Assembly (NCBI RefSeq): GCF_000372725.1
Contig: NW_005202176.1
Location: 380,188 to 444,187, forward strand
Direction of reading: 5' to 3'
DNA from: Emiliania huxleyi CCMP1516
Taxonomy: Eukaryota
Length of the DNA: 64,000 nucleotides
Below, piece after piece: positions 10,051 through 53,600 of the stretch. Numbering within the stretch: the stretch's first letter is position 1; the number at the start of each line of letters is the position of its first letter. The notes under the pieces are model-generated. The model did not search any database, was not told the origin of the DNA, and saw nothing but the letters and a program-made list of their open reading frames with translations. A program made the translations under genes and the position numbers.

Positions 10051-10059
10051 CAGCCCCGC

Positions 10060-29667: not shown

Positions 29668-32600
29668 TTACGCCCCCATGTCATCCGAGTTGAGGACGAC
29701 AGGCCCAACACGCCCGCCCTCGAGCCTCTGCCGCGCGGGCACCGCCGGCTGAAGGCAGCCGCGGACGCCCGCGAGCAGCTCGGCGAGCGCGCCCTGCCAC
29801 CCGTCCGCCTTGAGCGAGCCGCCGCCACCGCTGGTTGCGGCGGCGCGGGTCGAGCGAGAGCGCGGCAGCTCCTCCAGCGCCTTGGCCGGCGGCGACGGCG
29901 CGAGGAACTCGGCCGCCATCGCCTTGAACCGCTCGTCGCGGCGCGCGATGCACTGCATCACCACGTCGAAGTGCTGCCCCTCGAGCTCCAGCTCGAGCGC
30001 CGACGCCCCAAACTCGCCGAGCGAGCCCTGGATCTGCACCATCCGCTCGAGCGCGCCGAGCGCCCTCGCGCCGAGCACGCGCTCGAAGTCGTCGCGGATG
30101 TGCGCGAGCGAGGAGCCCTCGTCGAGCATCTTTCGGAAGTCGGACGCGTTCTCGTACTTTGCGAACGCCGCGCGCACCATCGCCGAGCGGCCTCCCGTCA
30201 GCCGGTCGACCACGGCGTCGTCGACGTTGCGCAGCCCTTGCGTCATGAGGAAGCTGAAGTACGCCCCTCGCTCGCTCGCGCGTACCATGAGTATGGCGGG
30301 CTCGCCGCGCTCGCCGGCAAAGGCGAAGGGCCGCGGCGGCTTCGGCGCCCTCCCTCCCCACTCGTCCCACACCAGCTGGATGAGCTGCTTGTGCACAGCG
30401 ATCCGGACGGCGGCGGCGCGCGTCGCCTCCTGCGCCTGCGCGATGCTCGGGCGCGCAGGCAGCGAGGCCTTGGCCAGGACGAAGGCGAGGGCGCCCTCGG
30501 GCGAGCCGCGCACCTCGTCAAGGATCCCCTGCAGGGCCTCGAGCCCGCCCGCGTCGCGCGCGCCGCCGAGCTGGATCGTGGGGCCGATGATGAGCGACTC
30601 GGCCGCCATCGCGAAGCTGATGTGCACGTGGCGCGAGAGCTCGCGCAGGAAGCCCGGCATTGCGCCCGACTCTGGCGGGTCGATGAGCACGAGGCCGCGC
30701 GGCCGCCCGCCGAGGCTCCGCGCGATGAGGGCGACTCTGTGCGCGACCAGCGCGCCGAGCGAGCCGCCGATCAGGTCAAAGGGCGAGTCAGCCAGGTAGG
30801 CGACCAGCTCGGCGGCGTACGCCTCGGAGAGCTGCTGGATGGAGGTCGACCCCTCGACGACGCCACTCCAAAAGGCGGGGTGGCGCAGCGCGATCACCTC
30901 GCGCTCGAGCACGTTGGAGGGCTTGTACCACCGCTCGTAGCCTTGCTCGTCGCCGACGACGCTGTGTGCTATGACGAGCGGCGGCGCAGCCGGCGCCGCG
31001 GCAGGTTTGCCGCACAGCCGCACGAGCGACGGACTGATGTACTCAGCCTGCTCGGCTCCAGCGTGCTCGGTCCGATCCGTGGAGGTGGGCGCAGCGGCCG
31101 TGGCCGACGCCTCGACCGACTCCCCAGCTTGCGCTCCTGGCCCCGCCTCGGGCGGTGCGGCCGTGGCACTCGCGCCAAGGTGCAGAGCGAGGGAGCGCGC
31201 CGTCGGGTGGTCAATGAGCAGCGTGCTCGGCAGCTCGTCGACGCCCGTCGCGTGCTGCAGCTGGGTGCGCAACTCGACCGCGCCGAGCGAGTCGAGCCCC
31301 GCATCTGCGAGAGGGACGTCCGCATCGACGCTGCCACTCATAGCGCCACCGATGATGTCGAGGATAGAGTCGAGGTTGAGCGCCACAGACTTCGTGTAGC
31401 CGCCAGCCGCCTTCTCCTTGAGCAGACGCCGGTTCTTCCACGGCAGGAGCAGGCCGGGCACGGGGCCAGCGGCTCCCCGGCCGAGCAGCAGCGGCCACTC
31501 GGCCGGCCACACCGCCACGACGCGGTCGCACCGCGCCAGCGAGGCGTGAAGGGCGTCCCACGCCATCGCACGCGTGACGGCGCCCATGCCGCTCTTCGTC
31601 GCCCGCTCGTCCGCCCCGTGGCGCGCAGCGTAGCCGATCTCGGCGACGGCGCCCCACTGCGTGCCGAGCCCGCCCAGGCCCGCGTCGCGCCGGCAGTGCA
31701 CCAGCGAGTCGAGCCACGTGTTGGCCGCAGAGTGCGGCGTCGCGGCGGCGTTGCCGATGAGCCCCGCCACCGACGAGTAGGCGTGGAAGTGCTGCAGCGC
31801 GCCGGCGAGGCTGGCCGCGTGCAGCCAGCCCGCGCCGTGCACCTTGGGCGCGAAGACCGTGGCGAAGTGGCCCATCGTCTGGTTGCGCACCGTCGCATCC
31901 GCAAGCAAGCCCGCGGCGTGGTAGACCCCGCACAGCGGCATGCAGCTCTGCTGCACGGCGCCGGCAAGCGCCCGCACAGCGGTGGCGTCAGACACGTCGC
32001 AACGGGCGGGCGACACGGCAACGCGGCTGGTGAGCCACGCCCAGTCCGCCTCGCTGCCGCTCTGCACGCGCCCGCTGCGACACGAAAGCACCAGGTGCTT
32101 CGCGCCACGCCCGACGAGCATGCGTGCCGTCAGCAAGCCGAGCCCGCCGAGCCCACCCGAGAAGAGGTGGGTGCCGCGATCGAGCTCCGCGCGCCGTGCG
32201 CCAGGCGACCGCTCGCCCACCTGGGAGACGATGATCGCCTGCGTCTCGAGCAGCAGGCCGTCGCCGCGCATGCAGTGGGAGCTGGCAAAGCCGCTCGCCG
32301 CCAGGATCTGACGCCAGTGCTCCCACGACAGCAGCGGGCTCGGCTGGTTGGTGCGCTCCGGGTCGCTCGCAAACATCCACCACCCGTCGGTCAGGCCAAA
32401 CGTGGTCTGCAAAAATCCACTCGTTCGAAGCAGCTCATTCAGAAGAAGGAAGCCCCCGTCGCAGAGCAGGCGGCGGCAGTTTCGCAGCGTGTTGCGGATG
32501 AAGGGCGTCGCGTGCAGCACGTTGGTGGCGATGGCGAGGTCGAACGATCCCGAGGCGAAGCCCTGGAGGCGCGAGTCGGCGTCGATGTTGAGCAGCTCAA

Positions 32601-35600
32601 AGCGCATGAAGCCGGCGTACTCGGCAAAGCGCCGCTGCGCCTGGTTGAGGAAGACCTCCGACACGTCGGTGAACATGTACTGCTCGCACACCCGACGCAG
32701 CCGCGGCAGCACGCTCGATGCCGTGCCGCCCGTGCCGGCGCCAACCTCGACGACGCTCAAGAAGCGGCCGGCTGGCAGGCTGGCAATGATGGAGTCGATC
32801 GCGGCCACCACGCACTCGTTGTAGAAGCGAGCGTTGACGGCGTCCTCGTACACGGGCAGCGTCAGCTCCATCGACCCTCCCGGGAAGAGGAGCTCCTGGT
32901 AGGCGACGGTGCCGAGGAGGGCGGCGGCGAGCTGGGAGGCACATCGTTGAGTCAAGCCAACCTCAGGCCAGAGCCGCGGCGACACTGCGAGCACGTCTTC
33001 GTACGATGCGGGCTCTGTGGGCGGCTCGATGGCGGCGCACCACTCATGTAGCAGCCGGTGGTGCCACTTGGGGATGGCAGAAGGGTCCAAACCGCTCAGG
33101 GCGCGGGCGATGTCGTGCCTCACAGCCCTCTCAAGCACCTCGTGGGCGTCCGTCACCTGCGGCAATTCCTCGAGCGCGCGCACCGCGTCCGACACGTGGG
33201 CATCAAGCAGCTCGCAGAGCGGCGCAAACGCCACCGCCAACGAGCTTGGCGCACCCAACCGGACAGGTATCGTGATCACCACCTTGCCGAGGTTTGCGCC
33301 GCCCGAGAGGAACCGGAACGCGTCTCGTGCCTCGCGCTCGATGCCGAAGCTGCGGAGCGGGAGGCCGTGGACCACAACCGCCTCGAGCCGCCGCGCGAGG
33401 ACCTGCAGCACCTCTGCAGAGTACCAGTCAGGGTCGGCGGGGACGTCGAGCGCCATGTCGAGGACGGAATAGGCGCTCGGCACGGCGGCGGCGGCTCGCG
33501 CAAAGCTCCACACGGAGCGCTTCCCGATCTCTTCGAACCGGCCGGCCGGCGCAAGGAGCGCGAAGGAGGTGGAGATGAAGTCCGCGGACAGGCTGTTGAG
33601 CACGCCGTCCAGGCGCCGCCCGCCAAGCTGCGATGCGAGCGAATGCCCGCACGAGGCAGCTTGGCGAGAGCTCGCAGTCGAGCGTACGCCGCAGCACCGC
33701 AGGAGGTGGTGCTTGCGCGGGGCGCCCGCGGTGCCAAAGAGCCGGAGGCGAAGCCACGCGGCGTACTCCGAAGCCGCCAGGCCAACGCCGCCGGCCGTAG
33801 CGTGCACGAGCAGCCGCCGCGAGCCGACGAGCCGGGACCGGACGAACGCCACGTGCACAGTGCACCAGGTGCTGATCAGAGTGGTCGCGGCCTCAAAGCT
33901 CACCGCGCTCGGCTTGCGCACCTGCAATCGCGCGTCGCAGCACACATGCGATGCGAGGCAAGCATTGGAGATACCGAAGCAAGCGTCGCGCTGAGCAATG
34001 TGAGCGACCTGCGAGCCCGCGTGCTCCACCATGCCAGCGCAGTCGGAACCCGGGTCGGCTCGAGGCCCCGGATACTGATCCAAAACGATCAGGACATCCC
34101 GGAAGTTGAGGCCGACCGCATGCACGGCGATGCTGACCTCGGTGGGCGCCACCTCGTTGCCATCGCGGGACGAGTGGTCGCCCCGAGGCTCGAGCTTGAG
34201 GTTCGCGAATGAGCCGCGGGGCTCGCAAGTCAGGACGATCGACTGCAACGCCGCCGGCGATCTCCGCAAGGTCAGCCGGCGAACGTGCATCGAGCCGCCG
34301 CGGAGCGCCGCCTCGTTCTCGGCGGCGGGTCCCACTCGCAGGCCGTGGACGAACCCGTCCTCGGATGCCAGCGCGCGCGAGCGCACGAGCTCGGCCGCGC
34401 CACGCAGCGACTGCGCGCACCCGAAGTCGAGGTCCAGGTTGTACAGCGGCAGCCCGGCTGCCTCTTGCAGACACGCACGCGCAAAGCCCCACAGACCGGC
34501 GTGCTCGCTCGAGCTCCGCCGCACGGAGGCGACGGGCTGGGTCAGGTGCGTGCAGACCCACACCGGCACAGCGGCGGGCAGGTCCATCTGCCACTGCACG
34601 ATGGTCAGCGCCGACGCGATGCTGCCCAGCGCGGCCGCAGCCCGGGGCGGCGCGACGAGGACGACGCCATCGAGAGCGCCGGCCTCGCGCAGCTCCGAGG
34701 CGGACCCGCTCTCCGCGCGCCGAGCGATGCTCCGCCCGAGCGCCGCGGCCAGCGTGCCGCGCCGGTCGCCCACGAGCAAGACGCGGGCCTCCCGGCTCGG
34801 ATCGGCCGCGGCGGAGGCCACCGGAGCCCACTCCGTCGCAAAGTAGCCAACCTTTTCAGTGGCCTTGGTCTCGGGCTTCTGTCGCCAAGCAAAGAGGGTT
34901 CGCTTAAAGCGTAAGGATGGCCCCCACGGGACCGCTACGTCATCGCCAGAGATAGTCAATAGATGGTGCACAATGGTGCCGCTGTACCCAAACGAGCTCA
35001 CGCCGCCGAGCCGAGTGGCGTTGCCGCCCTCCCACGTCGTCGCGAGCTGCGTCTGGTGCAAGACGCGGACGCTCTCGATCGCGGAAGCCACGTGCGGGTT
35101 GAGCACGCGGAGCTGTGCGTTGGGCGACGCCTGATCGGTCACCAGCTTCAGCCCGAGGCGAAGAAGCCCCGCGGCACCGGCAGCCGCTTCGGCATGGCCC
35201 GCGTTGGCCTTGATGCTGCCCACTGCCGTGATGGAACCGTGCCCTGCAAGCAAGGTCGCGGCGAGCGAGCCCACCTCGATCGGGTCGCCGAGCGACGTGC
35301 CAGTGCCGTGCGCCTCGACGCAGCTCAGATCATCGCAGGTCGATCCGGCATCGACGAGCGCTGCCTCAAGGAGCGCCTGCTGCGCCTTGCCGTTTGGCGC
35401 GGTGAGGCTCGCGCTCTTGCCGTCTTGCCGCACGCAGCTCCCGGTGGAGACGAGGGACGACTCCGACTTGGCGTGCGACAGCAGTGTGAGGGCACAGCAG
35501 GACTCGCCACGCGCAAAGCCATCAGCGCGGGCGTCAAAAGTGTGGCAGCGCCCCCGCGCCGACGTCATGCCAGCCGTCGCAAAGCTTGTCCCCAGCGACG

Positions 35601-38600
35601 GCAGAAGCATCAAGCTCACGCCAGCAACAACTCCGCCAGAGCACTCGCCGAGCTGGGTAGCACGCAGTGCCGCGTGACCAGCCGCAAGCGTAGAGGAGCA
35701 GGCAGTGTCATACGACGCGCACGGACCCTGGAGGCCCAAAATGTAGGACAGCCGTCCAGATGCGATCGAGTGGCTGCTACCCGTGGCAGAGTAGACGCTG
35801 CTAGCGAGGGGCGAGTTCGTGACGAGGAATGCAAAGTCCTGCGTTCCAATACCAACGAACACGCCCATGGTTGTGCCAATTAGCGTGGTGCGCTTCAGCC
35901 CGGCACCGTGCAGCGACTCGTAGCCCCGCTCGAGCAAGATGCGCTGCTGCGGATCCATCACTGCCGTCTCGGCCGCGGAGATGCCAAAGCACGCGTTGTC
36001 GAAGCGGTCAATGCCGCGCGCAAACCCACCGTGACGTACTCGGCGAGCGATGAGCTCATCTGGGAACTGCAGCTCGTCTGGGCACCACCGGTCAGCAGGC
36101 ACCTCCGACACCACGTTGCCGCCCGTCGCGGCGACGGCTCGAGCCGCCTCGAGAGTGGTGACGCCCTCCGGAAGGGTGGCAGAGAGGCCGGCGGCGCAAA
36201 CCGCCTCGGCAGCGCGGGCGGAGGCATGCGAGGGCGTGGCGGCGGCGGCTGCCACCGGCGGCGCGCCCTTGTCGCTGAAGAAGGAAGCCAGCTGACGCGC
36301 AGTCGGGTGGTCAAACACCAGAGTGCTCGGCAGTGGCACCGCGTCGCCAGCCGCCCGCTGGAGCTGGTTGCGCAGCTCGACCGCGCCGAGCGAGTCGAGC
36401 CCCGCCTCCATGAGAGGCACGTCCGCGTCGACGCGTGCGCTCATTGTGCCCTGCAAGATCTCGAGCACCCCGTCGAGGCTCAGAAGGGCGGACGAACCCG
36501 CCGTCGCGGCCGGCTGGGTCGCGCTGGCACTCGCCGGAACGCCCGGCGCCGGCGCTGCGCGGGCGCGCTTCGGCGCCGCTCGGCCGCGCCGGTTCTTCCA
36601 CGGCAGGAGCAGGCCGGGCACGGCGCCGGCAGGTGCGCGGCCGAGCAGCAGCGGCCACTCGGCCGGCCACACCGCCACGACGCGGTCGCACCGCGCCAGC
36701 GAGGCGTGAAGGGCGTCCCACGCCATCGCACGCGTGACGGCGCCCATGCCGCTCTTCGTCGCCCGCTCGTCCGCCCCGTGGCGCGCCGCGTAGCCGATCT
36801 CGGCGACGGCGCCCCACTGCGTGCCGAGCCCGCCCAGGCCCGCGTCGCGCCGGCAGTGCACCAGCGAGTCGAGCCACGTGTTGGCCGCAGAGTGCGGCGT
36901 CGCGGCGGCGTTGCCGATGAGCCCCGCCACCGACGAGTAGGCGTGGAAGTGCTGCAGCGCGCCGGCGAGGCTGGCCGCGTGCAGCCAGCCCGCGCCGTGC
37001 ACCTTGGGCGCGAAGACCGTGGCGAAGTGGCCCATCGTCTGGTTGCGCACCGTCGCATCCGCAAGCAAGCCCGCGGCGTGGTAGACCCCGCACAGCGGCA
37101 TACAGCTCTGCTGCACGGCGCCGGCAAGCGCCCGCACAGCGGTGGCGTCAGACACGTCGCAACGGGCGGGCGACACGGCAACGCGGCTGGTGAGCCACGC
37201 CCAGTCCGCCTCGCTGCCGCTCTGCACGCGCCCGCTGCGAGACGAAAGCACCAGGTGCTTCGCGCCACGCCCGACGAGCATGCGTGCCGTCAGCAAGCCG
37301 AGCCCGCCGAGCCCACCCGAGAAGAGGTGGGTGCCGCGATCGAGCTCCGCGCGCCGTGCGCCAGGCGACCGCTCGCCCACCTGGGAGACGATGATCGCCT
37401 GCGTCTCGAGCAGCAGGCCGTCGCCGCGCATGCAGTGGGAGCTGGCAAAGCCGCTCGCCGCCAGGATCTGACGCCAGTGCTCCCACGACAGCAGCGGGCT
37501 CGGCTGGTTGGTGCGCTCCGGGTCGCTCGCAAACATCCACCACCCGTCAGTCAGGCCAAACGTGGTCTGGATAGAACTGCTCGTCCGAAGTGCCTCATTG
37601 ACAAGAAGGAAGCCCCCGTCGCAGAGCAGGCGGCGGCAGTTTCGCAGCGTGTTGCGGATGAAGGGCGTCGCGTGCAGCACGTTGGTGGCGATGGCGAGGT
37701 CGAACGATCCCGAGGCGAAGCCCTGGAGGCGCGAGTCGGCGTCGATGTTGAGCAGCTCAAAGCGCATGAAGCCGGCGTACTCGGCAAAGCGCCGCTGCGC
37801 CTGGTTGAGGAAGACCTCCGACACGTCGGTGAACATGTACTGCTCGCACACCCGACGCAGCCGCGGCAGCACGCTCGATGCCGTGCCGCCCGTGCCGGCG
37901 CCAACCTCGACGACGCTCAAGAAGCGGCCGGCTGGCAGGCTGGCAATGATGGAGTCGACCGCGGCCACCACGCACTCGTTGTAGAAGCGGGAGTGAACTG
38001 CGTCCTCGTACACGGGCAGCGTCAGCTCCATGGACCCTCCCGGGAAGAGGAGCTCCTGGTAGGCGACGGTGCCGAGGAGGGCGGCGGCGAGCTGGGAGGC
38101 ACATCGTTGAGTCAAGCCAACCTCAGGCCAGAGCCGCGGCGACACTGCGAGCACGTCTTCGTACGATGCGGGCTCTGTGGGCGGCTCGATGGCGGCGCAC
38201 CACTCATGTAGCAGCCGGTGGTGCCACTTGGGGATGGCAGAAGGGTCCAAACCGCTCAGGGCGCGGGCGATGTCGTGCCTCACAGCCCTCTCAAGCACCT
38301 CGTGGGCGTCCGTCACCTGCGGCAAGTCCTCGAGCGCGCGCACCGCGTCCGACACGTGGGCATCAAGCAGCTCGCAGAGCGGCGCAAACGCCACCGCCAA
38401 CGAGCTTGGCGCACCCAACCGGACAGGTATCGTGATCACCACCTTGCCGAGGTTTGCGCCGCCCGAGAGGAACCGGAACGCGTCTCGTGCCTCGCGCTCG
38501 ATGCCGAAGCTGCGGAGCGGGAGGCCGTGGACCACAACCGCCTCGAGCCGCCGCGCGAGGACCTGCAGCACCTCTGCAGAGTACCAGTCAGGGTCGGCGG

Positions 38601-41600
38601 GGACGTCGAGCGCCATGTCGAGGACGGAATAGGCGCTCGGCACGGCGGCGGCGGCTCGCGCAAAGCTCCACACGGAGCGCTTCCCGATCTCTTCGAACCG
38701 GCCGGCCGGCGCAAGGAGCGCGAAGGAGGTGGAGATGAAGTCCGCGGACAGGCTGTTGAGCACGCCGTCCAGGCGCCGCCCGCCAAGCTGCGATGCGAGC
38801 GAATGCCCGCACGAGGCAGCTTGGCGAGAGCTCGCAGTCGAGCGTACGCCGCAGCACCGCAGGAGGTGGTGCTTGCGCGGGGCGCCCGCGGTGCCAAAGA
38901 GCCGGAGGCGAAGCCACGCGGCGTACTCCGAAGCCGCCAGGCCAACGCCGCCGGCCGTAGCGTGCACGAGCAGCCGCCGCGAGCCGACGAGCCGGGACCG
39001 GACGAACGCCACGTGCACAGTGCACCAGGTGCTGATCAGAGTGGTCGCGGCCTCAAAGCTCACCGCGCTCGGCTTGCGCACCTGCAATCGCGCGTCGCAG
39101 CACACATGCGATGCGAGGCAAGCATTGGAGATACCGAAGCAAGCGTCGCGCTGAGCAATGTGAGCGACCTGCGAGCCCGCGTGCTCCACCATGCCAGCGC
39201 AGTCGGAACCCGGGTCGGCTCGAGGCCCCGGATACTGATCCAAAACGATCAGGACATCCCGGAAGTTGAGGCCGACCGCATGCACGGCGATGCTGACCTC
39301 GGTGGGCGCCACCTCGTTGCCATCGCGGGACGAGTGGTCGCCCCGAGGCTCGAGCTTGAGGTTCGCGAATGAGCCGCGGGGCTCGCAAGTCAGGACGATC
39401 GACTGCAACGCCGCCGGCGATCTCCGCAAGGTCAGCCGGCGAACGTGCATCGAGCCGCCGCGGAGCGCCGCCTCGTTCTCGGCGGCGGGTCCCACTCGCA
39501 GGCCGTGGACGAACCCGTCCTCGGATGCCAGCGCGCGCGAGCGCACGAGCTCGGCCGCGCCACGCAGCGACTGCGCGCACCCGAAGTCGAGGTCCAGGTT
39601 GTACAGCGGCAGCCCGGCTGCCTCTTGCAGACACGCACGCGCAAAGCCCCACAGACCGGCGTGCTCGCTCGAGCTCCGCCGCACGGAGGCGACGGGCTGG
39701 GTCAGGTGCGTGCAGACCCACACCGGCACAGCGGCGGGCAGGTCCATCTGCCACTGCACGATGGTCAGCGCCGACGCGATGCTGCCCAGCGCGGCCGCAG
39801 CCCGGGGCGGCGCGACGAGGACGACGCCATCGAGAGCGCCGGCCTCGCGCAGCTCCGAGGCGGACCCGCTCTCCGCGCGCCGAGCGATGCTCCGCCCGAG
39901 CGCCGCGGCCAGCGTGCCGCGCCGGTCGCCCACGAGCAAGACGCGGGCCTCCTGGCTCGGATCGGCCGCGGCGGAGGCCACCGGAGCCCACTCGCACGCG
40001 TAGGACCAGTCGGCGGCCGGGGCAGCCTTGCCGGCGGCCGAGGCAGCCTTGCCGGCGGCGCCCTTCTTGAGCACACGGCTCTCGAAGTGGTCGAGCCTCG
40101 TCGCCTTCCCGAGGCCAGACAGGACGACGTCAGCCGTGGAGGCGCCTCGCCGGCTCAGCATCGCGACCATGTTGCCGTGCAAGCCGCTGAGCGCCGCCTC
40201 TGCCACCGAGAAGGGGAGTCGAGTCTCGCTCGAGCGCTCGCGCTCCATCAGAATCGAGGCCTGCAGCGCGCCGTCAAGGTCCGCGGGGTGGAGGAGAGTG
40301 CCCTCGAGGCACGCCTTGCGTCGGGGGCGCAGAGACGCGATCGCCGTGCCCGAGAGAGCCGACGCCCAGCCCTGAGCGAGCGTCTGGAAGGCGCGGCCGT
40401 ACTCGAGCCCAACGGCGCGGAAGTCGCCGTAGATCCGAGCTGCATCGGCGGCGTGCGGGCAGCACGCGCGCTGCGCTGGCGCGGCGAGCGACCGCGCGCC
40501 CGCCGCGCCTCCCGCCCCGCCACCCGAGGGTGACGCCGCGCAATGCACCATCCGCTCGGCGAGGGCGGCGCCCGCGCCGCTGCGAATCTCAAGACTGTCG
40601 AGCGCACCCGACACCTCGCACTCGATGTGCTGGTCGGCAGCCGGCTCCACCACGCAGGGCTGCATGAAGAGGACGCGGCGCAGATGGCACGCACGGCTGC
40701 CCGCGTAAAGCGTGCTCGCCTGGCATGCGGCCCGCGCCAGCTCGAGATAGCCGGCCGCGGGGAAGATGACGCGGCCTTGCACGACGTGGTCGGCCATGAG
40801 GGCAACTAGCCGGCCCCGGGCCGGCGAGCGGAAGAGGTGGGCCTCGCCGGCGCGGCCCGGCTGCTGCGCCAGCGGGTGCAGCTCGTCCTGCCACGAGAAG
40901 CGCTGCCTGCGGTAGACCAAGCCCGGAGCGGACGGCGGCCGCGCCGGCTCGCCCGCGCGGGCCGAGCACGAGAGGACGGCGTGGACGATGGTGCCGCTGT
41001 AGCCAAAGGAGGAGACGCCTCCCACTGCCACCAACCCGCGCTCCCGCTGCAACCGCTGCGTAGGCAGTATGGCGCTCGGTCCTGCACCCCCACCGAGATG
41101 CTCAGAGACGAGCTCGTTCATCACCCGGAGCTGCGCGTTGCCAGCGCAGTCAGCCGACAAGACGTGAAGGGCCTTGCAGATGCCGAACAGCCCAGACATT
41201 GGCTCCGCGTGGCCGACATTTGCCTTGAGCGCCCCAACAGCGACGTGCCCCGGAGCCGCGCGGAAGAGGTGCGACAAGGCGCCGCTCTCGATCGGGTCGC
41301 CGAGCGCCGTGCCTGTGCCGTGCGCCTCAATCGATGCGACAGCAGCCGCGGTGACCGACGCGCGAGACAGGGCAGCGTTCATCAGCACCCGCTGGGCGGA
41401 GCCGTTTGGCGCAGTCAGGCTCGCGCTGCGTCCATCCTGCCGCACCGCGCTGCCAAGCAGAAGCCGGGCGGGAGCTCCCTCGCAAATAGCGTCACGTGTG
41501 AGGACGATCGCGCCGACGCCCTCCGCCCGGACAAACCCGTTGGCACTCCTGTCGTAGGTCTTGCAGCGGGCGTCGGGAGAAAGCATTCCCGCAGCGGCAA

Positions 41601-44600
41601 CTCGTAGGGTCACAAGAGGCGACAGCTTCAGCGTCACAGACGCGACCAACGCCAGCGCGCACTCGGTATTGCGCATGGCGCTGGCGGCGCTGTGCTGCGC
41701 ACTGAGTGCCGAAGAGCAAGCAGTGTCGAGGCTCATGCAGGGCCCCATCAGCCCCAAGCAGAAGGAGATGCGCCCCGCGGCAACGGAGTTGGTGTCGGCA
41801 GTCACGGCATAGACAGAGGCTGCGGCTTGTGGCGACTGCATCCGGGTCCAATCTGGCCGCTCCATCCCAACGTATACGCCGGTGTCTGTGCCGAGCAGCG
41901 AGTCGCGTCGCAAGCCGTGGCCGTGGAAGGCCTGATAGCTGAGCTCAAGGAGCAGCCGCTGCTGCGGGTCCATGGCAGCGCCCTCAGTGGGCGAGATGGC
42001 GAAGAGGGCGCTGTCGAACAGCTCAGCTTTGCACACAAACCCACCGCTGCCTGCAGCCGCCGCCTGCACGTCGCTGATTGAGCCGATGTCCACGTGCTCG
42101 CTGAGCACCCATCGCACGCGGGGCACTGCGCGGATGCCGTCCCCGCTCGCTTCGAAGCTCGCCATTGCTTCACCGATCGCCTCGGCTCCTCCTGGCCAGC
42201 GCGCGACATCCCCACCTGAGATCGAGATGGCTTTCTCCGCCGCTGCAGGCGACGCACTGGCAGTGGCAATCGGCCGGTTTGCGCCCGAGCAGCGCAGCTC
42301 TTCTAGCAGATGCGATGCGAGGGCTCGGGGAGTCGGGTGGTCGAACACCATTGTTGGCGACACCGCGACGCCCGTTAGATCGCGCAGGCGCGAGGCGAGC
42401 TCCGTTGCGGCTAGCGAGTCGATGCCAGCCTCCATCAGCGGCGTGGCGGCGCCGATGGCTTCGACGTCGCTCAGCTTGCGCACCGTCTCCAAAACGGCCT
42501 CCTCCATTCTCGTCGCTCTGACCGCTGGCGTCAACGTCGCCAGCTCCTGGCTAAAGTTGCTTCCGCACGCATTCTCAGTGCCAGAGGCTGCAGAGCTAGA
42601 CACGGCGGCGCGCAGCTCCGACAGGAGAGGAACGTCTGCGCTGGGCACGCCCTCGAGCATGCGTGCGGTGGCCGTGGGCAGTGGCAATCGCACGGCCACG
42701 GCCGCATTGCTGAGCACCGACTGGAGTACGGCCTCGTACTCGACGAGAGAGATGGCAAGCATGCCTCGGAAGGACATCTGCCCTTTGGAGAAGGCAGCGG
42801 CTCCGATTCCGACGCCCTGCACGAGCGGGAACTGCACGCTGCTGGCGACGCACCCGCGGCTGCCCAAGTGGGCGGCCAACACGTCCAAGCACGAGTTGGC
42901 CGAGGCGTAGCTCGCTTGCCCGGCGCCGCCGAGCATGGCAGCGACAGACGAGTAGAGCAAGAATCCCCGCAACGGTGCCGTCGTCGTGCAGGCGTGAAGA
43001 AGCCTTGCGCTGTCGACTTTGGCCGCAAAGACGGCGTGCACGCGCGGCGCGAGGATGTCGGCGAGCAGACCCTTGTCGGCCACGCCTGCTGCATGCAGGA
43101 CATGGGCGGTCCCACCGGCCGTGGCTCCAAGCAGCGCCTTGACATCGGCCGGCTTGCTCGCGTCGCACGCCAGGACAGCCACATGCTTCGCCGAGTCTCG
43201 CAGAGATTGCAGCATGTCGTGCAGGCCTTGGCCGTCGCGCACCACAGCGCCGCTGCGAGAGGTGAGCAGAATCGACGAGGCAGAGCGAGCAAAGAGCAGC
43301 GCCGCCTTGAGCCCGAGACCACCAAGGCCGCCAGTCACAACGACGGAACTTCTCTGCCTGGACGGACCGGCCAAAGTCGAGGTTTTCGTCACGCCGCCCC
43401 CACGGCGGAGGCGGGCCACAAACCTCGAGGCACCGACGTAGGCTGCAGCGGAGTCGTGCGCCGCCGCGGAAAGCGCAGCTGTGAAGAATGAGCGTGCTGC
43501 CTCCTCCGCGGCCGGCGTGGCGCGGGGGAGATCGACGAGTCCGAGCCGCAGCTGGGGCCGCTCGAGCTGGAGGACTCTGCCGACGCCCCACGAGCCACAC
43601 CCTCCGAGGATGGAGCCGGGCTGGACGACGCGTGGCGCGGCGACAACCTCGCCGCTGGTGCAGACGATGATCTGGGGGGGCGGCTGCAGATTGACCAGGC
43701 GCTGGAGAAGAGTGATCAGAGGGGCGGCCGTGGTGTCGCCCTCCCCGCCGGGGCAGATGACCACGGCGGCCCACTGCCCGGCTGCGCTGGCCCCCGCCTC
43801 CAAGTCAGCCTTCTCCACCTGCAGCCTAGCCTGGACAAGCGCTCTCCCGACAAGCGAAATCCCCTGGTGGGGAGCGAGCAGAAGGCAGCGGCCAGAGACG
43901 GTAGCCGCCTGAAGCGCGCTGCGGGAGCGGACCCACGCAGCTTGGTAGCTTGAAAGCGAGGCCTCGGTGCTGGTAGGCGACGAGGAGCGCCACTTGAACG
44001 ACTTGTGGCGGTAGCTGTAACGGCGTGTGAACGAGGTGGACGGGGCCACCGTCAGCGCTGATGCAGCAGCGACGACATGCACAATGGTGCCGCTGTACCC
44101 AAACGAGCTCACGCCGCCGAGCCGAGTGGCGTTGCCGCCCTCCCACGTCGTCGCGAGCTGCGTCTGGTGCAAGACGCGGACGCTCTCGATCGCGGAAGCC
44201 ACGTGCGGGTTGAGCACGCGGAGCTGTGCGTTGGGCGACGCCTGATCGGTCACCAGCTTCAGCCCGAGGCGAAGAAGCCCCGCGGCACCGGCAGCAGGCT
44301 CGGCATGGCCCGCGTTGGCCTTGATGCTGCCCACTGCCGTGATGGAACCGTGCCCTGCAAGCAAGGTCGCGGCGAGCGAGCCCACCTCGATCGGGTCGCC
44401 GAGCGACGTGCCAGTGCCGTGCGCCTCGACGCAGCTCAGATCATCGCAGGTCGATCCGGCATCGACGAGCGCTGCCTCAAGGAGCGCCTGCTGCGCCTTG
44501 CCGTTTGGCGCGGTGAGGCTCGCGCTCTTGCCGTCTGATCGCACGCAGCTACCCGCCAAGGAGAGGTGGCCCATCCCCGTGCGCAAGGTGAGGGCACAGC

Positions 44601-47600
44601 ACGCCTCAGCACGAGCATAGCCGTCAGCGCGGGCGTCAAAAGTGTGGCAGCGCCCCCGCGCCGACGTCATGCCAGCCGTCGCAAAGCTATAGCTAACTCG
44701 GGGCAAAAGAAGCAGGCTGATGCCAGCGACCAAGTTGTCGACGCTTTCGGCATGCCGTGTCGCACGCACCGCCGCATGGCATGCGGTGAGAGTAGAGGAG
44801 CAGGCAGTGTCATACGACGCGCACGGACCCTGGAGGCCCAAAATGTAGGACAGCCGTCCAGATGCGATCGAGTGGCTGCTACCCGTGGCGGAGTAGACGC
44901 TGCCCCCTGCGGGAGATTTCGAGAGAATCTCGGCGAAGTCGTTGGCGGCGATGCCAATGAAAATCCCGGTGACGCTCCCTAGCAGGCTGGACTTGGGAAG
45001 TCCAGCACCGTGTAGCGACTCGTAGCCCCGCTCGAGCAAGATGCGCTGCTGCGGATCCATCGAAGCCGCCTCCACCGCGGAGATGCCAAAGTGGCCGTTA
45101 TCGAACAGGTCGGCCGCTCGGACAAACGCTCCGTGGCAAACGCGCTGAGCAACTGCAGCGGAAACGTTGCTGGCCTCTAGCGTCCACCGGTCTGCAGGCA
45201 CCTCCGACACCACGTTGCCGCCCGTCGCGGCGACGGCTCGAGCCGCCTCGAGAGTGGTGACGCCCTCCGGAAGGGTGGCAGAGAGGCCGGCGGCGCAAAC
45301 CGCCTCGGCAGCGCGGGCGGAGGCATGCGAGGGCGTGGCGGCGGCGGCTGCCACCGGCGGCGCGCCCTTGTCGCTGAAGAAGGAAGCCAGCTGACGCGCA
45401 GTCGGGTGGTCAAACACCAGAGTGCTCGGCAGTGGCACCGCGTCGCCAGCCGCCCGCTGGAGCTGGTTGCGCAGCTCGACCGCGCCGAGCGAGTCGAGCC
45501 CCGCCTCCATGAGAGGCACGTCCGCGTCGACGCGTGCGCTCATTGTGCCCTGCAAGATCTCGAGCACCCCGTCGAGGCTCAGAAGGGCGGACGAACCCGC
45601 CGTCGCGGCCGGCTGGGTCGCGCTGGCACTCGCCGGAACGCCCGGCGCCGGCGCTGCGCGGGCGCGCTTCGGCGCCGCTCGGCCGCGCCGGTTCTTCCAC
45701 GGCAGGAGCAGGCCGGGCACGGCGCCGGCAGGTGCGCGGCCGAGCAGCAGCGGCCACTCGGCCGGCCACACCGCCACGACGCGGTCGCACCGCGCCAGCG
45801 AGGCGTGAAGGGCGTCCCACGCCATCGCACGCGTGACGGCGCCCATGCCGCTCTTCGTCGCCCGCTCGTCCGCCCCGTGGCGCGCAGCGTAGCCGATCTC
45901 GGCGACGGCGCCCCACTGCGTGCCGAGCCCGCCCAGGCCCGCGTCGCGCCGGCAGTGCACCAGCGAGTCGAGCCACGTGTTGGCCGCAGAGTGCGGCGTC
46001 GCGGCGGCGTTGCCGATGAGCCCCGCCACCGACGAGTAGGCGTGGAAGTGCTGCAGCGCGCCGGCGAGGCTGGCCGCGTGCAGCCAGCCCGCGCCGTGCA
46101 CCTTGGGCGCGAAGACCGTGGCGAAGTGGCCCATCGCCTGGTTGCGCACCGTCGCATCCGCAAGCAAGCCCGCGGCGTGGTAGACCCCGCACAGCGGCAT
46201 GCAGCTCTGCTGCACGGCGCCGGCAAGCGCCCGCACAGCGGTGGCGTCAGACACGTCGCAACGGGCGGGCGACACGGCAACGCGGCTGGTGAGCCACGCC
46301 CAGTCCGCCTCGCTGCCGCTCTGCACGCGCCCGCTGCGAGACGAAAGCACCAGGTGCTTCGCGCCACGCCCCACGAGCATGCGTGCCGTCAGCAAGCCGA
46401 GCCCGCCGAGCCCACCCGAGAAGAGGTGGGTGCCGCGATCGAGCTCCGCGCGCCGTGCGCCAGGCGACCGCTCGCCCACCTGGGAGACGATGATCGCCTG
46501 CGCCTCTAGGACGTAGCCGTCGCCGCGCATGCAGTGGGAGCTGGCAAAGCCGCTCGCCGCCAGGATCTGACGCCAGTGCTCCCACGACAGCAGCGGGCTC
46601 GGCTGGTTGGTGCGCTCCGGGTCGCTCGCAAACATCCACCACCCGTCGGTCAGGCCAAACGTGGTCTGCAAAAATCCATTCGTTCGAAGCAGCTCATTCA
46701 GAAGAAGGAAGCCCCCGTCGCAGAGCAGGCGGCGGCAGTTTCGCAGCGTGTTGCGGATGAAGGGCGTCGCGTGCAGCACGTTGGTGGCGATGGCGAGGTC
46801 GAACGATCCCGAGGCGAAGCCCTGGAGGCGCGAGTCGGCGTCGATGTTGAGCAGCTCAAAGCGCATGAAGCCGGCGTACTCGGCAAAGCGCCGCTGCGCC
46901 TGGTTGAGGAAGACCTCCGACACGTCGGTGAACATGTACTGCTCGCACACCCGACGCAGCCGCGGCAGCACGCTCGATGCCGTGCCGCCCGTGCCGGCGC
47001 CAACCTCGACGACGCTCAAGAAGCGGCCGGCTGGCAGGCTGGCAATGATGGAGTCGACCGCGGCCACCACGCACTCGTTGTAGAAGCGAGCGTTGACGGC
47101 GTCCTCGTACACGGGCAGCGTCAGCTCCATGGACCCTCCCGGGAAGAGGAGCTCCTGGTAGGCGACGGTGCCGAGGAGGGCGGCGGCGAGCTGGGAGGCA
47201 CATCGTTGAGTCACGCCAACCTCAGGCCAGAGCCGCGGCGACACTGCGAGCACGTCTTCGTACGATGCGGGCTCTGTGGGCGGCTCGATGGCGGCGCACC
47301 ACTCATATAGCAGCCGGTGGTGCCACTTGGGGATGGCAGAAGGGTCCAAACCGCTCAGGGCGCGGGCGATGTCGTGCCTCACAGCCCTCTCAAGCACCTC
47401 GTGGGCGTCCGTCACCTGCGGCAAGTCCTCGAGCGCGCGCACCGCGTCCGACACGTGGGCATCAAGCAGCTCGCAGAGCGGCGCAAACGCCACCGCCAAC
47501 GAGCTTGGCGCACCCAACCGGACAGGTATCGTGATCACCACCTTGCCGAGGTTTGCGCCGCCCGAGAGGAACCGGAACGCGTCTCGTGCCTCGCGCTCGA

Positions 47601-50600
47601 TGCCGAAGCTGCGGAGCGGGAGGCCGTGGACCACAACCGCCTCGAGCCGCCGCGCGAGGACCTGCAGCACCTCTGCAGAGTACCAGTCAGGGTCGGCGGG
47701 GACGTCGAGCGCCATGTCGAGGACGGAATAGGCGCTCGGCACGGCGGCGGCGGCTCGCGCAACGCTCCACACGGAGCGCTTCCCGATCTCTTCGAACCGG
47801 CCGGCCGGCGCAAGGAGCGCGAAGGAGGTGGAGATGAAGTCCGCGGACAGGCTGTTGAGCACGCCGTCCAGGCGCCGCCCGCCAAGCTGCGATGCGAGCG
47901 AATGCCCGCACGAGGCAGCTTGGCGAGAGCTCGCAGTCGAGCGCACGCCGCAGCACCGCAGGAGGTGGTGCTTGCGCGGGGCGCCCGCGGTGCCAAAGAG
48001 CCGGAGGCGAAGCCACGCGGCGTACTCCGAAGCCGCCAGGCCAACGCCGCCGGCCGTAGCGTGCACGAGCAGCCGCCGCGAGCCGACGAGCCGGGACCGG
48101 ACGAACGCCACGTGCACAGTGCACCAGGTGCTGATCAGAGTGGTCGCGGCCTCAAAGCTCACCGCGCTCGGCTTGCGCACCTGCAATCGCGCGTCGCAGC
48201 ACACATGCGATGCGAGGCAATTCTTCGCCTGACCGAAGCAAGCGTCGCGCTGAGCAATGTGAGCGACCTGCGAGCCCGCGTGCTCCACCATGCCAGCGCA
48301 GTCGGAACCAAGCGTGCCAAGGTACTCCGACGGAAGTTCACCCAACGCATCCAGGACATCCCGGAAGTTGAGGCCGACCGCATGCACGGCGATGCTGACC
48401 TCGGTGGGCGCCACCTCGTTGCCATCGCGGGACGAGTGGTCGCCCCGAGGCTCGAGCTTGAGGTTCGCGAATGAGCCGCGGGGCTCGCAAGTCAGGACGA
48501 TCGACTGCAACGCCGCCGGCGATCTCCGCAAGGTCAGCCGGCGAACGTGCATCGAGCCGCCGCGGAGCGCGGCCTCGTTCTCGGCGGCGGGTCCCACTCG
48601 CAAGCCGTGGACGAACCCGTCCTCGGATGCCAGCGCGCGCGAGCGCACGAGCTCGGCCGCGCCACGCAGCGACTGCGCGCACCCGAAGTCGAGGTCCAGG
48701 TTGTACAGCGGCAGCCCGGCTGCCTCTTGCAGACACGCACGCGCAAAGCCCCACAGACCGGCGTGCTCGCTCGAGCTCCGCCGCACGGAGGCGACGGGCT
48801 GGGTCAGGTGCGTGCAGACCCACACCGGCACAGCGGCGGGCAGGTCCATCTGCCACTGCACGATGGTCAGCGCCGACGCGATGCTGCCCAGCGCGGCCGC
48901 AGCCCGGGGCGGCGCGACGAGGACGACGCCATCGAGAGCGCCGGCCTCGCGCAGCTCCGAGGCGGACCCGCTCTCCGCGCGCCGAGCGATGCTCCGCCCG
49001 AGCGCCGCGGCCAGCGTGCCGCGCCGGTCGCCCACGAGCAAGACGCGGGCCTCCTGGCTCGGATCGGCCGCGGCGGAGGCCACCGGAGCCCACTCGCACG
49101 CGTAGGACCAGTCGGCGGCCGGGGCAGCCTTGCCGGCGGCCGAGGCAGCCTTGCCGGCGGCGCCCTTCTTGAGCACACGGCTCTCGAAGTGGTCGAGCCT
49201 CGTCGCCTTCCCGAGGCCAGACAGGACGACGTCAGCCGTGGAGGCGCCTCGCCGGCTCAGCATCGCGACCATGTTGCCGTGCAAGCCGCTGAGCGCCGCC
49301 TCTGCCACCGAGAAGGGGAGTCGAGTCTCGCTCGAGCGCTCGCGCTCCATCAGAATCGAGGCCTGCAGCGCGCCGTCAAGGTCCGCGGGGTGGAGGAGAG
49401 TGCCCTCGAGGCACGCCTTGCGTCGGGGGCGCAGAGACGCGATCGCCGTGCCCGAGAGAGCCGACGCCCAGCCCTGAGCGAGCGTCTGGAAGGCGCGGCC
49501 GTACTCGAGCCCAACGGCGCGGAAGTCGCCGTAGATCCGAGCTGCATCGGCGGCGTGCGGGCAGCACGCGCGCTGCGCTGGCGCGGCGAGCGACCGCGCG
49601 CCCGCCGCGCCTCCCGCCCCGCCACCCGAGGGTGACGCCGCGCAATGCACCATCCGCTCGGCGAGGGCGGCGCCCGCGCCGCTGCGAATCTCAAGACTGT
49701 CGAGCGCACCCGACACCTCGCACTCGATGTGCTGGTCGGCAGCCGGCTCCACCACGCAGGGCTGCATGAAGAGGACGCGGCGCAGATGGCACGCACGGCT
49801 GCCCGCGTAAAGCGTGCTCGCCTGGCATGCGGCCCGCGCCAGCTCGAGGTAGCCGGCCGCGGGGAAGATGACGCGGCCTTGCACGACGTGGTCGGCCATG
49901 AGGGCAACTAGCCGGCCCCGGGCCGGCGAGCGGAAGAGGTGGGCCTCGCCGGCGCGGCCCGGCTGCTGCGCCAGCGGGTGCAGCTCGTCCTGCCACGAGA
50001 AGCGCTGCCTGCGGTAGACCAAGCCCGGAGCGGACGGCGGCCGCGCCGGCTCGCCCGCGCGGGCCGAGCACGAGAGGACGGCGTGGACAATGGTGCCGCT
50101 GTAGCCAAAGGAGGAGACTGCACCGTACATAAGACCCGACTGCCCGTGACCCACGTTGCTTGGTGCCGTGGGTAGTCCGCAAGGCACGATGGAGAGCACA
50201 TCGTGGACGTGGGGGTTCACTCTCCGGAGCTGCGCGTTCGGCGACGTCGCGGAGCCTTGCAATGCAAGCACCAACGCCTGAAACCCGCTGAATCCAGCGC
50301 CAGGCTCGGCGTGGCCCGCGTTGGCCTTGAGGCTCCCGACAGTCGTCTGTGCCGCGCCCTCCTTGGCGGCAGGAACAAAGACGCTCGTCGATAGACTCCG
50401 CATCTCGATCGGGTCGCCCAGCGCGGTTCCCGTCCCGTGTGCCTCCTCCACTTGCACGTCCGCAGCGCGCACCCCCGCCCGCGCTATCGCCGCGCTGATC
50501 AGACGGCACTGCGCCTGACCGTTCGGGGCGGTGAGGCTAGCACTCCGTCCATCGCAGCGGACAGTCACGCCAGCGACCGCGCATCGGCTCCTCTGGCCCT

Positions 50601-53600
50601 CGTCTTGCGGCTCGAAGACCGCCGCGCCGCAAGAGTCAGCGCGCACGTAGCCATCCGCCCTCTCGTCGAAGGTGTGGCACTTGCCTCGAGGCGATGTCAT
50701 GCCCGCGATCGCGAACGCCTGGTGGACGTCGGTCACGAGCATCACGTTGACCGCCAGGACCACCGCCTCGCGGCACTCGCCGAGCTGCAGAGTGCCGCAC
50801 GCCAGATTGGTGGCCGTCAGCCCTGCGGAGCAGGCGGTGTCGACTTGCGTGCAAGGTCCCTGCATGCCAAGCGCGAAGGAGAGCCTCCCAGCTGCTACGG
50901 ACTGGCTGCTGCCGGTGGCAGCGTAGACGGAGCGCCACGCGTCCGACTGGAGGAGCACCCTCGAGAAGTCTTGGCACGAGAGCGCCAGGAAGACTCCGGT
51001 CTCCCGGCCCAGGAGCGAGGCGCGCAGAAGCCCTGCGGCGTGCAAAGCCGCGTAGCCGTGCTCGAGGCACAGGCGCTGCTGTGGGTCCATGGCAAACGCC
51101 TCGCTCTTCGAGACAGAGAAGGCGGATGCGTCGAAGAGGTCAGCCTGGCGGAGGAAAGCTCCGTACCTCATCCGGCTGCACACCACATCGTCCAGTCCGC
51201 CAGCGACCGCGTCGGCGACAGCGCTTCCCACGTCCCACCGTTCCAGCGGGACCTCGGCAGCGACGTCTCCGCAAGAAGCAAGGACCAGTGAAAATGTGTG
51301 CTGCGTAGCAACGCCCGCCGGTAGGCGAACGCTGCTCCCGACCAGCGTCTGTGATGACGAGGTCATCACTGGCGGCGCGAGGCCCAACTCAGAGCCCGGG
51401 TTCTCCTCCGGCGCCTGCACCAGCGCAGAGATGGCGCGGACGGTCGGCGCGTCGAAAATGAAAGTCGACGGCAGCTCCAACCCATCGCCGGCTGCGCGCT
51501 GCAGCTGGTTGCGCAGCTCGACGGCGCCGAGTGAGTCCAAGCCCGCTTCCATGAGAGGCTTGTCCGGGTCGAGCTCAGCCCCCGCGACTCCCTGCGCAAT
51601 TCGCAGTACTTGCTCCATCGGAAGCTGGTTGGTCAAGGTCGAGCTTGCACCACGAGCGGTGGCGGCGGGCTTGAACCTGTCAAGCAGCAGTGGGACGGCG
51701 GGTAGAGACTCCAAGAACCGATCCCAATCGGTGAGAAACAGCGCAAACACGGCCGGCTCGCGAGCGCTGAGCGCCGCGACCAGACCGGCCGCCCCCTCCT
51801 GCAAGCTGATCTGCCGTAGGCCAGACGCCTGTAAGCGTGCACTCACCGCGCTGCCCGCCGCCATACCCACGTCCGCCCACGGGCCCCACTGCACGCTCGA
51901 CGCCGCCAGCCCGTCGCCGCGCCGCCGAGCCGACAGCGCGTCGAGGCAGCAGTTGGCCGCGCTGTAGTTCGACTGGCCCGCGCCAAACAGGGCAGCCATC
52001 GACGAGAAGAGCACGAACGAGTCGAGCGGCGCAGCGGCGCACGCGCTCTGCAGGCACCACGCGCCGCCCGCCTTGGGCGCGTACACGCGGCGCAGCGACG
52101 CCGCCGTCTGCGAGCGCAGCAGCCCGTCCGACAGCACGCCCGCCGCGTGCCACACGCCGCGCCAATCCCGCACGCCCACGAGACGGCGCACGTCGGCAGG
52201 CTCCGACGCGTCGCAGCGAGCCGCGAGCAAGGCACACGAGGCCACCGACCCCGCCGATGTGTCCGCCTGCGCCGCGCCCACTCGCCCGCTGCGCGAGGAG
52301 AGCACCACCGCCGACGCGCCTCGGCCGACCAGCCAGCCCGCGGTCACAAAAGCCAGGCCCCCGCTCCCGCCCGTCACGATGTGCGACCCGTGCGCGCTCT
52401 GCTCGAGGAAGGCCACGCGGAGCACCACCTTCCCGGAGTTTGAGCCGCTCTGCAGGTACCGGAACGCCGCGACCGCCTCGCTCTCCAGGTCGAAGAGCTC
52501 CAGCGGCAGCCCGTGCAACACGAGCCGCCGGGCCCGCGCCGCCAGCTGGCGCAGCGCATGTTGGGTCCACTCCGGAGCGTGCTCCATCGTCGCGTCGAGC
52601 GCAAGCACCTCGTAGCGCAGATGCGCCGCCGACGACCACGCCCGCGCCGACGACCACACGCCGCGCTTGCCGATCTCGGCGAAGGTGCCGCCCTCGCGAG
52701 CCAGCGCCACCGAACAGGCGATGAAGTCGCCGGAGAGGCTGTTGAGCACGCAATCCAACCGCCGCGAGCGCAAGGCCGCCAAGCCCGAAGCGTACGCGCC
52801 GCCGTCGCGCGAGCTGCCCATCCCCCCCTCCAGGCCCAGTGCGCGCAGAACGCGGTGCTTGCGTGGCCGCCCCGCGGTCGTGCCAGTCGCTAGCCGAAGC
52901 CAGTGGCTGTACTCCACAGCCGCAAAGCCAACTCCGCCCGCGCCCGCATGCACGAGCAGCCGGTGCCGGGCCAGCGGACGCGAGCCGCAAAACGCGGCAT
53001 GCACCGTGCTCCACACCGTCGGCAGAGTGCACGCCGAGGCGGGCGACAGCTCCGCCGGCCGCGCCGCCAGCAGCCGCACGTCAGCGCGGGCGAGCGAGGC
53101 AAGCGCCGCCACCGCGTGGCCAAGCACACACCCGCCAACCGCCAGCTCCGCCCCCGCCGCCGCGCCGAGAGCCGCCACGCGCGCCGCACAATCCGAGCCG
53201 GGCGCACCCGGGTCGCCGGGGTACGCACCCAGCACGTTGAGCACGTCGCGAAAGTTGAGGCCGACGCACCACACCCGCAACGAAGCCTCGCCGTCCGCCG
53301 CTACGCCGCTCCCGACCGGCTGCGGCACCACGCGCAAACTCGTCAGCGAGCCCCGCGCGTCAAAGCGAAGCGCGATGGGGCACGAAAGCGAGCACGCCGC
53401 AGCGACGAGCCGAGGCGCGAGAGCGACGTCGCCCACGAGGCGCAGCTCCGGCTCGGCCAAGCCCTGGAGGGCCAGCGCCGCCGCCGCCGGCTCCACGAGG
53501 GACACCGCCGCCGCGCCAGAGAGCGCAAGACAACCGAGCGGCGCCGATGGCGCCTCGCTCCGCGCCGACCGCGCGAGTCCCAGCAAGCCGGGCTGGTGCT

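Follow-up and report, generated by a model that had tools for sequence, protein, structure and literature searches.

Gene and module architecture

The window, i.e., the whole 64,000-nucleotide stretch of Emiliania huxleyi DNA that was analysed, carries a trans-AT modular PKS gene on the minus strand (29668..63999), a single open frame of 11,443 aa with an open 5' end that is cut by the window end. Its modules are DH-ER-KR-ACP, two copies of KS-DH-ER-KR-ACP, M4 (KS-DH-ER-MT-KR-ACP), M5 (KS-KR-ACP), M6 (KS-DH-ER-MT-KR-ACP) and M7 (KS-ER-MT-KR-ACP-TE); when the structural subdomain is spelled out, M7 reads KS-psiKR-ER-MT-KR-ACP-TE and has no DH. A Pfam search of the 3' flank, run on 14 selected frames (a non-exhaustive set with introns ignored), detected no AT domain. 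Across all seven modules seen here, the domain string agrees with the one listed for EhuPKS6 (JGI 632068) of the same species in supplement file 2 of Shelest et al. 2015 (PMC4661987). The match is by domain string only; it extends to the missing DH of the last module and to the TE, and the loading ligase-ACP and first KS of EhuPKS6 are outside the window. The table row for EhuPKS6 carries no comment on KRs, and the words "KR domain" are absent from the main text of that paper.

M4, like all features described below, lies on the minus strand. It consists of a DH with intact His and Asp motifs (49150..49989), the KR structural subdomain (psiKR) upstream of ER and MT (48440..49100, bounds approximate; motifs at 48825 and 48759), an ER (47524..48408) with the loop DALGELPSEYLG after NFRD, as against IVLDQYPGPRAD in M6 and M7, a C-methyltransferase core (46486..47223) and, directly after it, a KR catalytic subdomain of the His type (45778..46443), in which GGLGGLG, LAD, Lys, Ser and Asn are retained. 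The KR of M5 (42700..43353), of the Tyr type by its motif and MT-less, is an internal control. M6 includes a DH, again with intact His and Asp motifs (40048..40887), and, by motif, an ER (38425..39306) and a C-methyltransferase core (37387..38124), as well as a His-type KR (36679..37344). In M7, an ER (33265..34146), which probably receives no enoyl substrate from its own module, a C-methyltransferase core recognized by motif (32227..32964) and a His-type KR (31519..32184) are followed by a thioesterase (30670..30981; a Pfam PF00975 stretch with GGSLG). The first-pass annotation had ascribed an intact DH to all three MT modules; this is right for M4 and M6, but M7 passes from KS straight to psiKR (34833..34951), and an RNA-library contig (X15 record 2, 34586-35005) bridges this DH-less junction.

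All three C-methyltransferases contain VEVGAGTGG and NVLHAT, and their best Foldseek match is the CurJ cMT (5thy); Foldseek confirmed the cMT and KR folds and nothing beyond. Differences between the copies within the window are concentrated in the pocket loops of ER and MT.

Histidine at the catalytic position

The KRs of M4, M6 and M7 read YSSVAGLIGNAAATPHSAAN, together with GGLGGLG, HAAGLLAD and FAPKVHG. The claim of the first-pass annotation that His takes the place of the catalytic Tyr in all three was borne out: every one of them is encoded by CAC (minus strand; 45991-45993, 36892-36894 and 31732-31734, respectively), and the retention of GGLGGLG and a B-type-like LAD was confirmed by motif reading. 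The MT-less KRs have GQSNYSAAN in three cases and GQASYASAN in one, also as described before. In phmmer alignments, the His falls without gaps on the catalytic Tyr of the tylactone PKS (2z5l), AmphB (3mjv/4dif/3mjc) and 5bp4. Canonical B-type KRs such as the tylactone KR have fold, register, Ser, Lys, Asn and LxD in common with the window KRs and differ in having Tyr where His is found here. None of the 45 chains matched in a PDB search bears a label that marks it as the KR of a cMT module.

The His of M4 was found in contigs from 4/4 public runs, including two RNA libraries, with no alternative letter at 45991-3; this check used contigs over 45700-46500 rather than raw reads and concerned the first codon only. 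An MMETSP transcript protein (P0001) has the identical motif and 99% KR identity. In an AlphaFold model built on an 18-row alignment (pLDDT 70), His stands at the start of helix 508-525; the active-site loop and the lid (497-510 and 533-565) have pLDDT <50, and side chains there are not placeable. The three KR copies differ by 3-4 of 678 nt and, therefore, count as one event, as had been proposed; this applies to the window's copies, but the His itself is far older than the gene and is common to 41 non-redundant MT-adjacent modules.

Distribution and evolution

In a census de-duplicated at 90%, 712 of 798 scored KRs were kept; all the sets are biased, since they were gathered with His-KR queries. 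With an upstream C-MT, His occupies the catalytic column in 41/48 MT-adjacent (algal-type) and 70/101 MT-embedded (bacterial-type) KRs, as against 10/374 complete MT-less modules; it was also found in 12/96 incomplete modules and in 2/93 modules of KR-then-MT order. Counted by genome loci, the distribution is 41/55 vs 1/36. The 41 MT-adjacent His-KRs conserve the third-position Asp (41), Ser (40), Lys (39), GGLGGLG (37) and Asn (30). Judging by this distribution, the His is not a product of local decay, because it is widespread in KRs with an upstream C-MT and rare without it.

At the same time, His is not required in MT modules, since Tyr works in some of them: Tyr is present in a CrpA-like protein, CcsC and L180, as well as in 28/101 bacterial-type and 5/48 algal-type KRs, and the CrpA-like protein and CcsC were the first two characterised MT modules examined. 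It may be supposed that the KRs are active and His is merely a tolerated inherited state of the MT-KR cassette, having no role in the timing of methylation. An independent-pairs comparison of MT and His (1.6 the same way, 1.2 opposite, 5 pairs, median p 1, on a tree for which exceptions were over-sampled) is not significant and leaves coupling unsupported, so that shared descent may explain the association. MT and KR travel as a single block, and there are 23 His/Tyr swaps on the 167-row tree; the CurJ/JamJ group itself includes two KRs with Tyr, the CrpA-like one and L180. Against this supposition, His persists over long branches, is encoded by CAC as well as by CAT, occurs in two domain orders and is almost missing when KR precedes MT. 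On balance, we regard mere tolerance as rather unlikely.

Algal KRs form a separate branch (support 99/97). Algal and bacterial His-KRs are apart in the free tree, and a tree that unites them is worse by 49.6 log units (p-AU 0.054). P0023, a close relative, has lost the His itself.

Evidence for ketoreductase activity

CurJ (L175) has His in its KR and Tyr in four neighbouring modules; the cMT and DH of L175 are, with the exception of terminal residues, letter for letter those of 5THY and 3KG8. His is also found in a JamJ orthologue and in the cyrA-linked CyrB of 2917 aa, and the products of JamJ and CyrB are reduced. HMWP1 has His at the Tyr column as well, in the motif GQSAHALAC. These enzymes resemble the window KRs in His, Ser, Lys, the glycine-rich NADPH motif, the B-type Asp, the loss of the lid Met and an upstream C-MT with NV[LI]HAT. 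They differ in domain order, which is DH-cMT-psiKR-(ER)-KR with AT in bacteria and DH-psiKR-ER-MT-KR without AT in the window, and in the motif, GQxNHxAAN in bacteria (apart from HMWP1) and PHSAAN here.

It had been suggested that these modules might leave alpha-methyl ketones, with DH and ER idle, on the premise that loss of Tyr marks a redox-dead KR. Ordinary KRs are indeed killed by a Tyr-to-Phe change (PMC7327777), and the window KR has additionally lost a Gln near the His. The Tyr-to-His swap was noted in HMWP1, MicC and the agrochelin enzyme despite a reduced product (PMC12997852, 2026); the authors predict inactivity, invoke an alternative mechanism and treat the swap as a conflict with their own spectra. 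For His, the premise fails: the products of CurJ and HMWP1 are reduced at the carbon concerned, and the CurJ DH acts on a 3,5-diol (PMC12828468). The partner DH dyads are intact in 9/10 algal-type and 46/49 bacterial-type His modules, compared with 216/221 Tyr controls; these counts come from an alignment test, used instead of a regex that was too crude (6/39 His modules, 91/233 controls). The idle-KR reading was rejected because of these two facts. KS5 and KS7 most resemble KSs located after a fully reducing module (62-64% vs 43-50%), a weak resemblance that KS4 does not fit.

The intact NADPH motif makes an epimerising-only variant unlikely; according to PMC11228615, C2 KRs keep Tyr or Gln and lose the NADPH site. 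The window KRs share fold and register with C2-type epimerases and differ in an intact GGLGGLG and in having His rather than Tyr or Gln. C1 (inactive) KRs have lost both catalytic Ser and Tyr (PMC7327777); here, Ser is kept. As for the canonical B type, the LDD-like motif is present as LAD and the A-type Trp is missing, but so is the catalytic Tyr. Taken together, a KR that is redox-dead or only epimerises, with reduction left undone or carried out by a trans-acting enzyme, is highly improbable.

The window KRs are best placed in an informal group, for which there is no curated model: His-type KRs of C-methylating modules, having His, an upstream intact C-MT, a replaced lid Met and conserved Ser, Lys, NADPH motif and B-type Asp. 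The precedent of CurJ and HMWP1 and the otherwise intact active site point to a working His-type variant, one of the readings proposed earlier. In our opinion, the window KRs probably belong to this widespread subgroup, found mainly with an upstream C-MT, and are active NADPH-dependent B-type reductases with His replacing Tyr.

Lid tyrosine and the Gln-to-Ala change

The usual lid Met covers the nicotinamide ring. Met or Leu stands at this column in 332/358 MT-less Tyr-KRs, and Ile, Ala or Thr in the 5 algal-type Tyr-KRs, as against Tyr in 35/41 MT-adjacent His-KRs (Phe in 2). By alignment, the lid of M4 (IGYAA) has Tyr (45889..45891) in the column of the GMA Met; the corresponding codons of M6 and M7 are 36790-36792 and 31630-31632. 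In addition, Ala (46000..46002 in M4) replaces the Gln three residues before His, which is kept in 40/41 MT-adjacent His-KRs.

The lid Tyr could itself give the acid or hydrogen bond, with His helping. Its occurrence and an independent-pairs comparison of His with a non-aliphatic lid (4.2 the same way, 0.0 opposite, 8 pairs, median p 0.125) are consistent with such a relocation, but bacterial His-KRs, including CurJ and HMWP1, function with Ala, Glu, Ser or Arg in the lid (Tyr in 4/70), and the lid Tyr is also met in some Tyr-KRs (6 incomplete modules); the low-pLDDT model does not position the side chain. We consider relocation unlikely. A broader scenario, in which the His-type KR of haptophytes evolved independently of bacteria with MT inserted elsewhere, the catalytic Tyr was relocated from helix F into the lid (GMA changed to GYA), a convergent His/lid-Tyr site gates reduction until methylation is complete and Gln-to-Ala in this gene alters alpha-methyl stereochemistry, is likewise unlikely.

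The Tyr-to-His swap has already been mentioned in two papers, and except for the lid Tyr there is little out of the ordinary in the finding. What is new is the algal lineage with the order psiKR-ER-MT-KR, Met-to-Tyr in the lid and Gln-to-Ala before His. A literature search gave no account of His-KR catalysis or its association with C-methylation; an earlier statement of the His-cMT link may exist. The main text of the PKZILLA preprint mentions neither histidine nor tyrosine, PMC13749307, PMC13564409 and the APD preprint contain nothing about His-KRs, and the names CyrB, CurJ and JamJ are absent from PMC3252866.

Proposed mechanism, predicted product and significance

If the window KRs are active, His and the conserved Ser may polarise and protonate the beta-carbonyl, doing the job of Tyr. 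Competition between MT and KR was documented in fungal PKSs (PMC6839510). His and the loss of the lid Met might make the KR slower or less keen on an unmethylated beta-ketoacyl chain, which would let MT act first, with reduction to follow. M4 and M6 would then each add an alpha-methylated, fully reduced unit, and M5 would leave a hydroxyl; M7, having no DH, would finish the chain with a 2-methyl-3-hydroxy end, to be released by TE. This predicts a 3,7-dihydroxy-2,4,8-trimethyl fatty acid as the product, whatever its starter.

If these KRs are read as active, a specific product can be predicted for an orphan PKS from a bloom-forming alga, and annotation rules that call Tyr-less KRs dead mispredict the products of His-KR modules. 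Two simple pairs lend themselves to tests: the algal KR and the Tyr in its lid, and CurJ and its MT-less counterpart. In one curacin-type cluster (G006), KS, AT and DH are 94-98% identical, MT is gone and the KR is of the Tyr type; with 53% KR identity, this is a block swap and not a point reversion.

Organization of the Gene

A single minus-strand frame (29668-63999) encodes an AT-less modular PKS of 11,443 residues, and no AT was found among the 14 frames scanned in the flank of the gene. According to profiles built for this analysis, the first modules read DH-ER-KR-ACP and then twice KS-DH-ER-KR-ACP, followed by KS-DH-ER-MT-KR-ACP (M4), KS-KR-ACP (M5), KS-DH-ER-MT-KR-ACP (M6) and KS-ER-MT-KR-ACP (M7), where KR is a ketoreductase and MT a C-methyltransferase; a terminal thioesterase was recognized by Pfam. 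EhuPKS6 of Emiliania huxleyi (PMC4661987, supplement) has the same domain string, strings and not sequences having been matched. The nearest relative with a named organism is a protein of Phaeocystis antarctica (53%). Flanking frames (8896-29378) encode a TauD dioxygenase (8899-10059, minus strand), DUF6817, HPAT, RPA, NHL-BTB and ankyrin proteins. Modules 1-3 (51760-63999) are near-identical in sequence, with a repeat period of 4,800 nt (KS2 and KS3, 99%), and their KRs show GGSGGLA and a loop before Tyr shorter by one residue.

The MT lies behind the KR structural subdomain (psiKR) and the ER, immediately ahead of the KR catalytic subdomain, whereas in bacterial cis-AT modules, such as that of CyrB, it precedes psiKR. 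The first-pass annotation assigned an intact DH to the methylating modules, and this holds for M4 and M6 but not for M7, where the KS leads straight into psiKR (34833-34951) across a junction spanned by one RNA-library contig. M7 retains an ER (33265-34146), which is predicted to be idle. A psiKR-ER-MT-KR cassette of about 3.4 kb (98–99% identical) is copied in M7 behind a KS related to KS5 (81%).

Histidine in the KRs of Methylating Modules

In all three MT-module KRs the motif is GNAAATPHSAAN, with CAC at 45991-45993 (M4), 36892-36894 (M6) and 31732-31734 (M7), while the other four KRs have Tyr. The early assignment of this His to the position of the catalytic Tyr was confirmed by gap-free alignment with 2z5l, AmphB KRs and 5bp4. 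The M4 codon is supported by contigs of 4/4 runs without any alternative letter, and the same motif occurs in an MMETSP transcript protein. The three KR copies differ at 3–4 of 678 nt. These KRs are most likely active members of a group of His-type KRs.

Distribution and Conservation of His-KRs

Every KR in proteins from searches with His-KR queries was collected, giving 798 with a residue at the Tyr column and 712 at 90% identity. In this set, biased by its queries and with counts that are not independent events, His was found in 41/48 KRs of the algal order psiKR-ER-MT-KR (MT-adjacent), 70/101 of the bacterial order with MT before psiKR (MT-embedded), 2/93 KR-then-MT modules, 10/374 complete MT-less and 12/96 incomplete modules; the 41 include two from one AT-bearing protein of ambiguous origin. 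Corresponding counts, under the same query bias, were 19/28 versus 3/264 in one search subset alone and 41/55 versus 1/36 among genome loci. An independent-pairs test of MT against His gave 1.6 versus 1.2 on 5 pairs, and 23 His/Tyr changes were counted on a 167-row FastTree tree.

The rest of the active site is largely kept in the 41 MT-adjacent His-KRs (Lys 39, Ser 40, GGLGGLG 37, B-type Asp 41, Asn 30), and bacterial His-KRs are also B-type (Asp in 67/70). The DH dyad is present in 9/10 algal-type His modules (one truncated), 46/49 bacterial-type ones and 216/221 Tyr controls. A large subclade (relatives P0006, P0008-P0013 and other MT-adjacent proteins) has HAAHxLAD where HAAGxLxD is usual, which places another His close to the active site. 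In P0023, a close relative of the window KR, His is replaced by Ala and the Tyr of the lid is also lost; this KR is likely to be truly dead.

In KRs the tyrosine can be missing: according to PMC7327777, which refers to Keatinge-Clay 2012, it is 'sometimes replaced by histidine'. A phrase search found this paper and PMC12997852 to treat the swap; no His-KR assay or algal mention of a His-KR was met in the literature searched, some key papers and preprint supplements lying outside it. The group is widespread and already noted, and its occurrence in an algal PKS is, as far as the search reached, new.

Comparison with Pathways of Known Products

The His is present in a protein whose first ER is nearly that of JamJ (5DOV) and in a 2917-aa A-PCP-KS-AT-DH-MT-KR-ACP protein of Chrysosporum bergii, located behind an amidinotransferase-like gene, which we take to be CyrB. 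Products of the JamJ-type and CyrB pathways are reduced. In G005, a genome with a curacin-type cluster, one module has cMT and DH identical letter for letter to the CurJ structures 5THY and 3KG8, terminal residues excepted; its KR reads GQGNHSAAN, and four neighbouring modules have Tyr. PMC12828468 describes a 3,5-diol as the substrate of elimination by the DH of CurJ, and the KR of this module would accordingly have reduced first. The KR of HMWP1 also has His (GQSAHALAC). PMC12997852 describes this replacement for HMWP1, for MicC and for the enzyme of agrochelin; it predicts inactivity and notes a conflict with the paper's own spectra.

The CurJ counterpart in a second such genome, G006, keeps KS, AT and DH (98, 97 and 94%), but MT is absent and the KR is another one, of Tyr type (53%); MT and His-KR were therefore exchanged together as a block. 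In the G006 cluster (L183:1443-7094, compared with L175:4235-11164 in G005), the cMT was lost when the whole MT-KR-ACP part was exchanged, and the cluster would yield a desmethyl product. MT together with a Tyr-KR, which speaks against a strict rule, occurs in CcsC, in locus L180 and in a CrpA-like protein of Nostoc ATCC 53789. CcsC is active, according to PMC12628792. Within the CurJ group, the KRs of the MT modules at loci L149, L163 and L180 have Tyr and a two-residue insertion (GQGMANYSAAN). A module of Okeania hirsuta (L006:4856-13252) combines a Tyr-KR with damaged MT (NVLYAT) and NADPH (EGISSLG) motifs.

Proposed Mechanism

The His would form a hydrogen bond with the carbonyl and protonate it together with Ser, NADPH would bind as normal, and the product would be a D-type alcohol. 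The swap would also favour methylation ahead of reduction, which is the weakest step of the proposal; in fungal PKSs, MT and KR compete for one beta-ketoacyl chain, as stated in PMC6839510. If the window KRs are active, colinearity predicts a 3,7-dihydroxy-2,4,8-trimethyl fatty acid, with the ER of M7 idle.

Features of the Algal Lineage

The lid column usually occupied by the Met of GMA has Met or Leu in 332/358 MT-less Tyr-KRs. Among His-KRs, 35/41 of the algal type have Tyr there, and 62/70 of the bacterial type have Ala, Glu or Ser. Over 8 independent pairs, a changed lid agreed with His in 4.2 and opposed it in 0.0 (median p 0.125); the lid side chain could not be placed in the structural model. 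In the tree, the MT-adjacent KRs of algae group on a separate branch (99/97, 36 rows); a single clade with bacterial His-KRs is disfavoured without being rejected (p-AU 0.054), and therefore the two types may have arisen by convergence.

Three residues ahead of His, this gene has Ala, and 40/41 relatives have Gln. Engineered Ala at this place in other KRs changed alpha-stereochemistry and raised activity, according to PMC7327777. M4 and M6 differ at 30 of 1,180 residues. These differences are concentrated in the loop that follows NFRD in the ER and in pocket regions of the MT (48351-48220, 47094-47089 and 46701-46669, with the M6/M7 copies), the KR being almost invariant, a pattern that would fit ER and MT domains that work and are tuned to their substrates. 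In M7, a mosaic, the ER is M6-like and the MT pocket M4-like.
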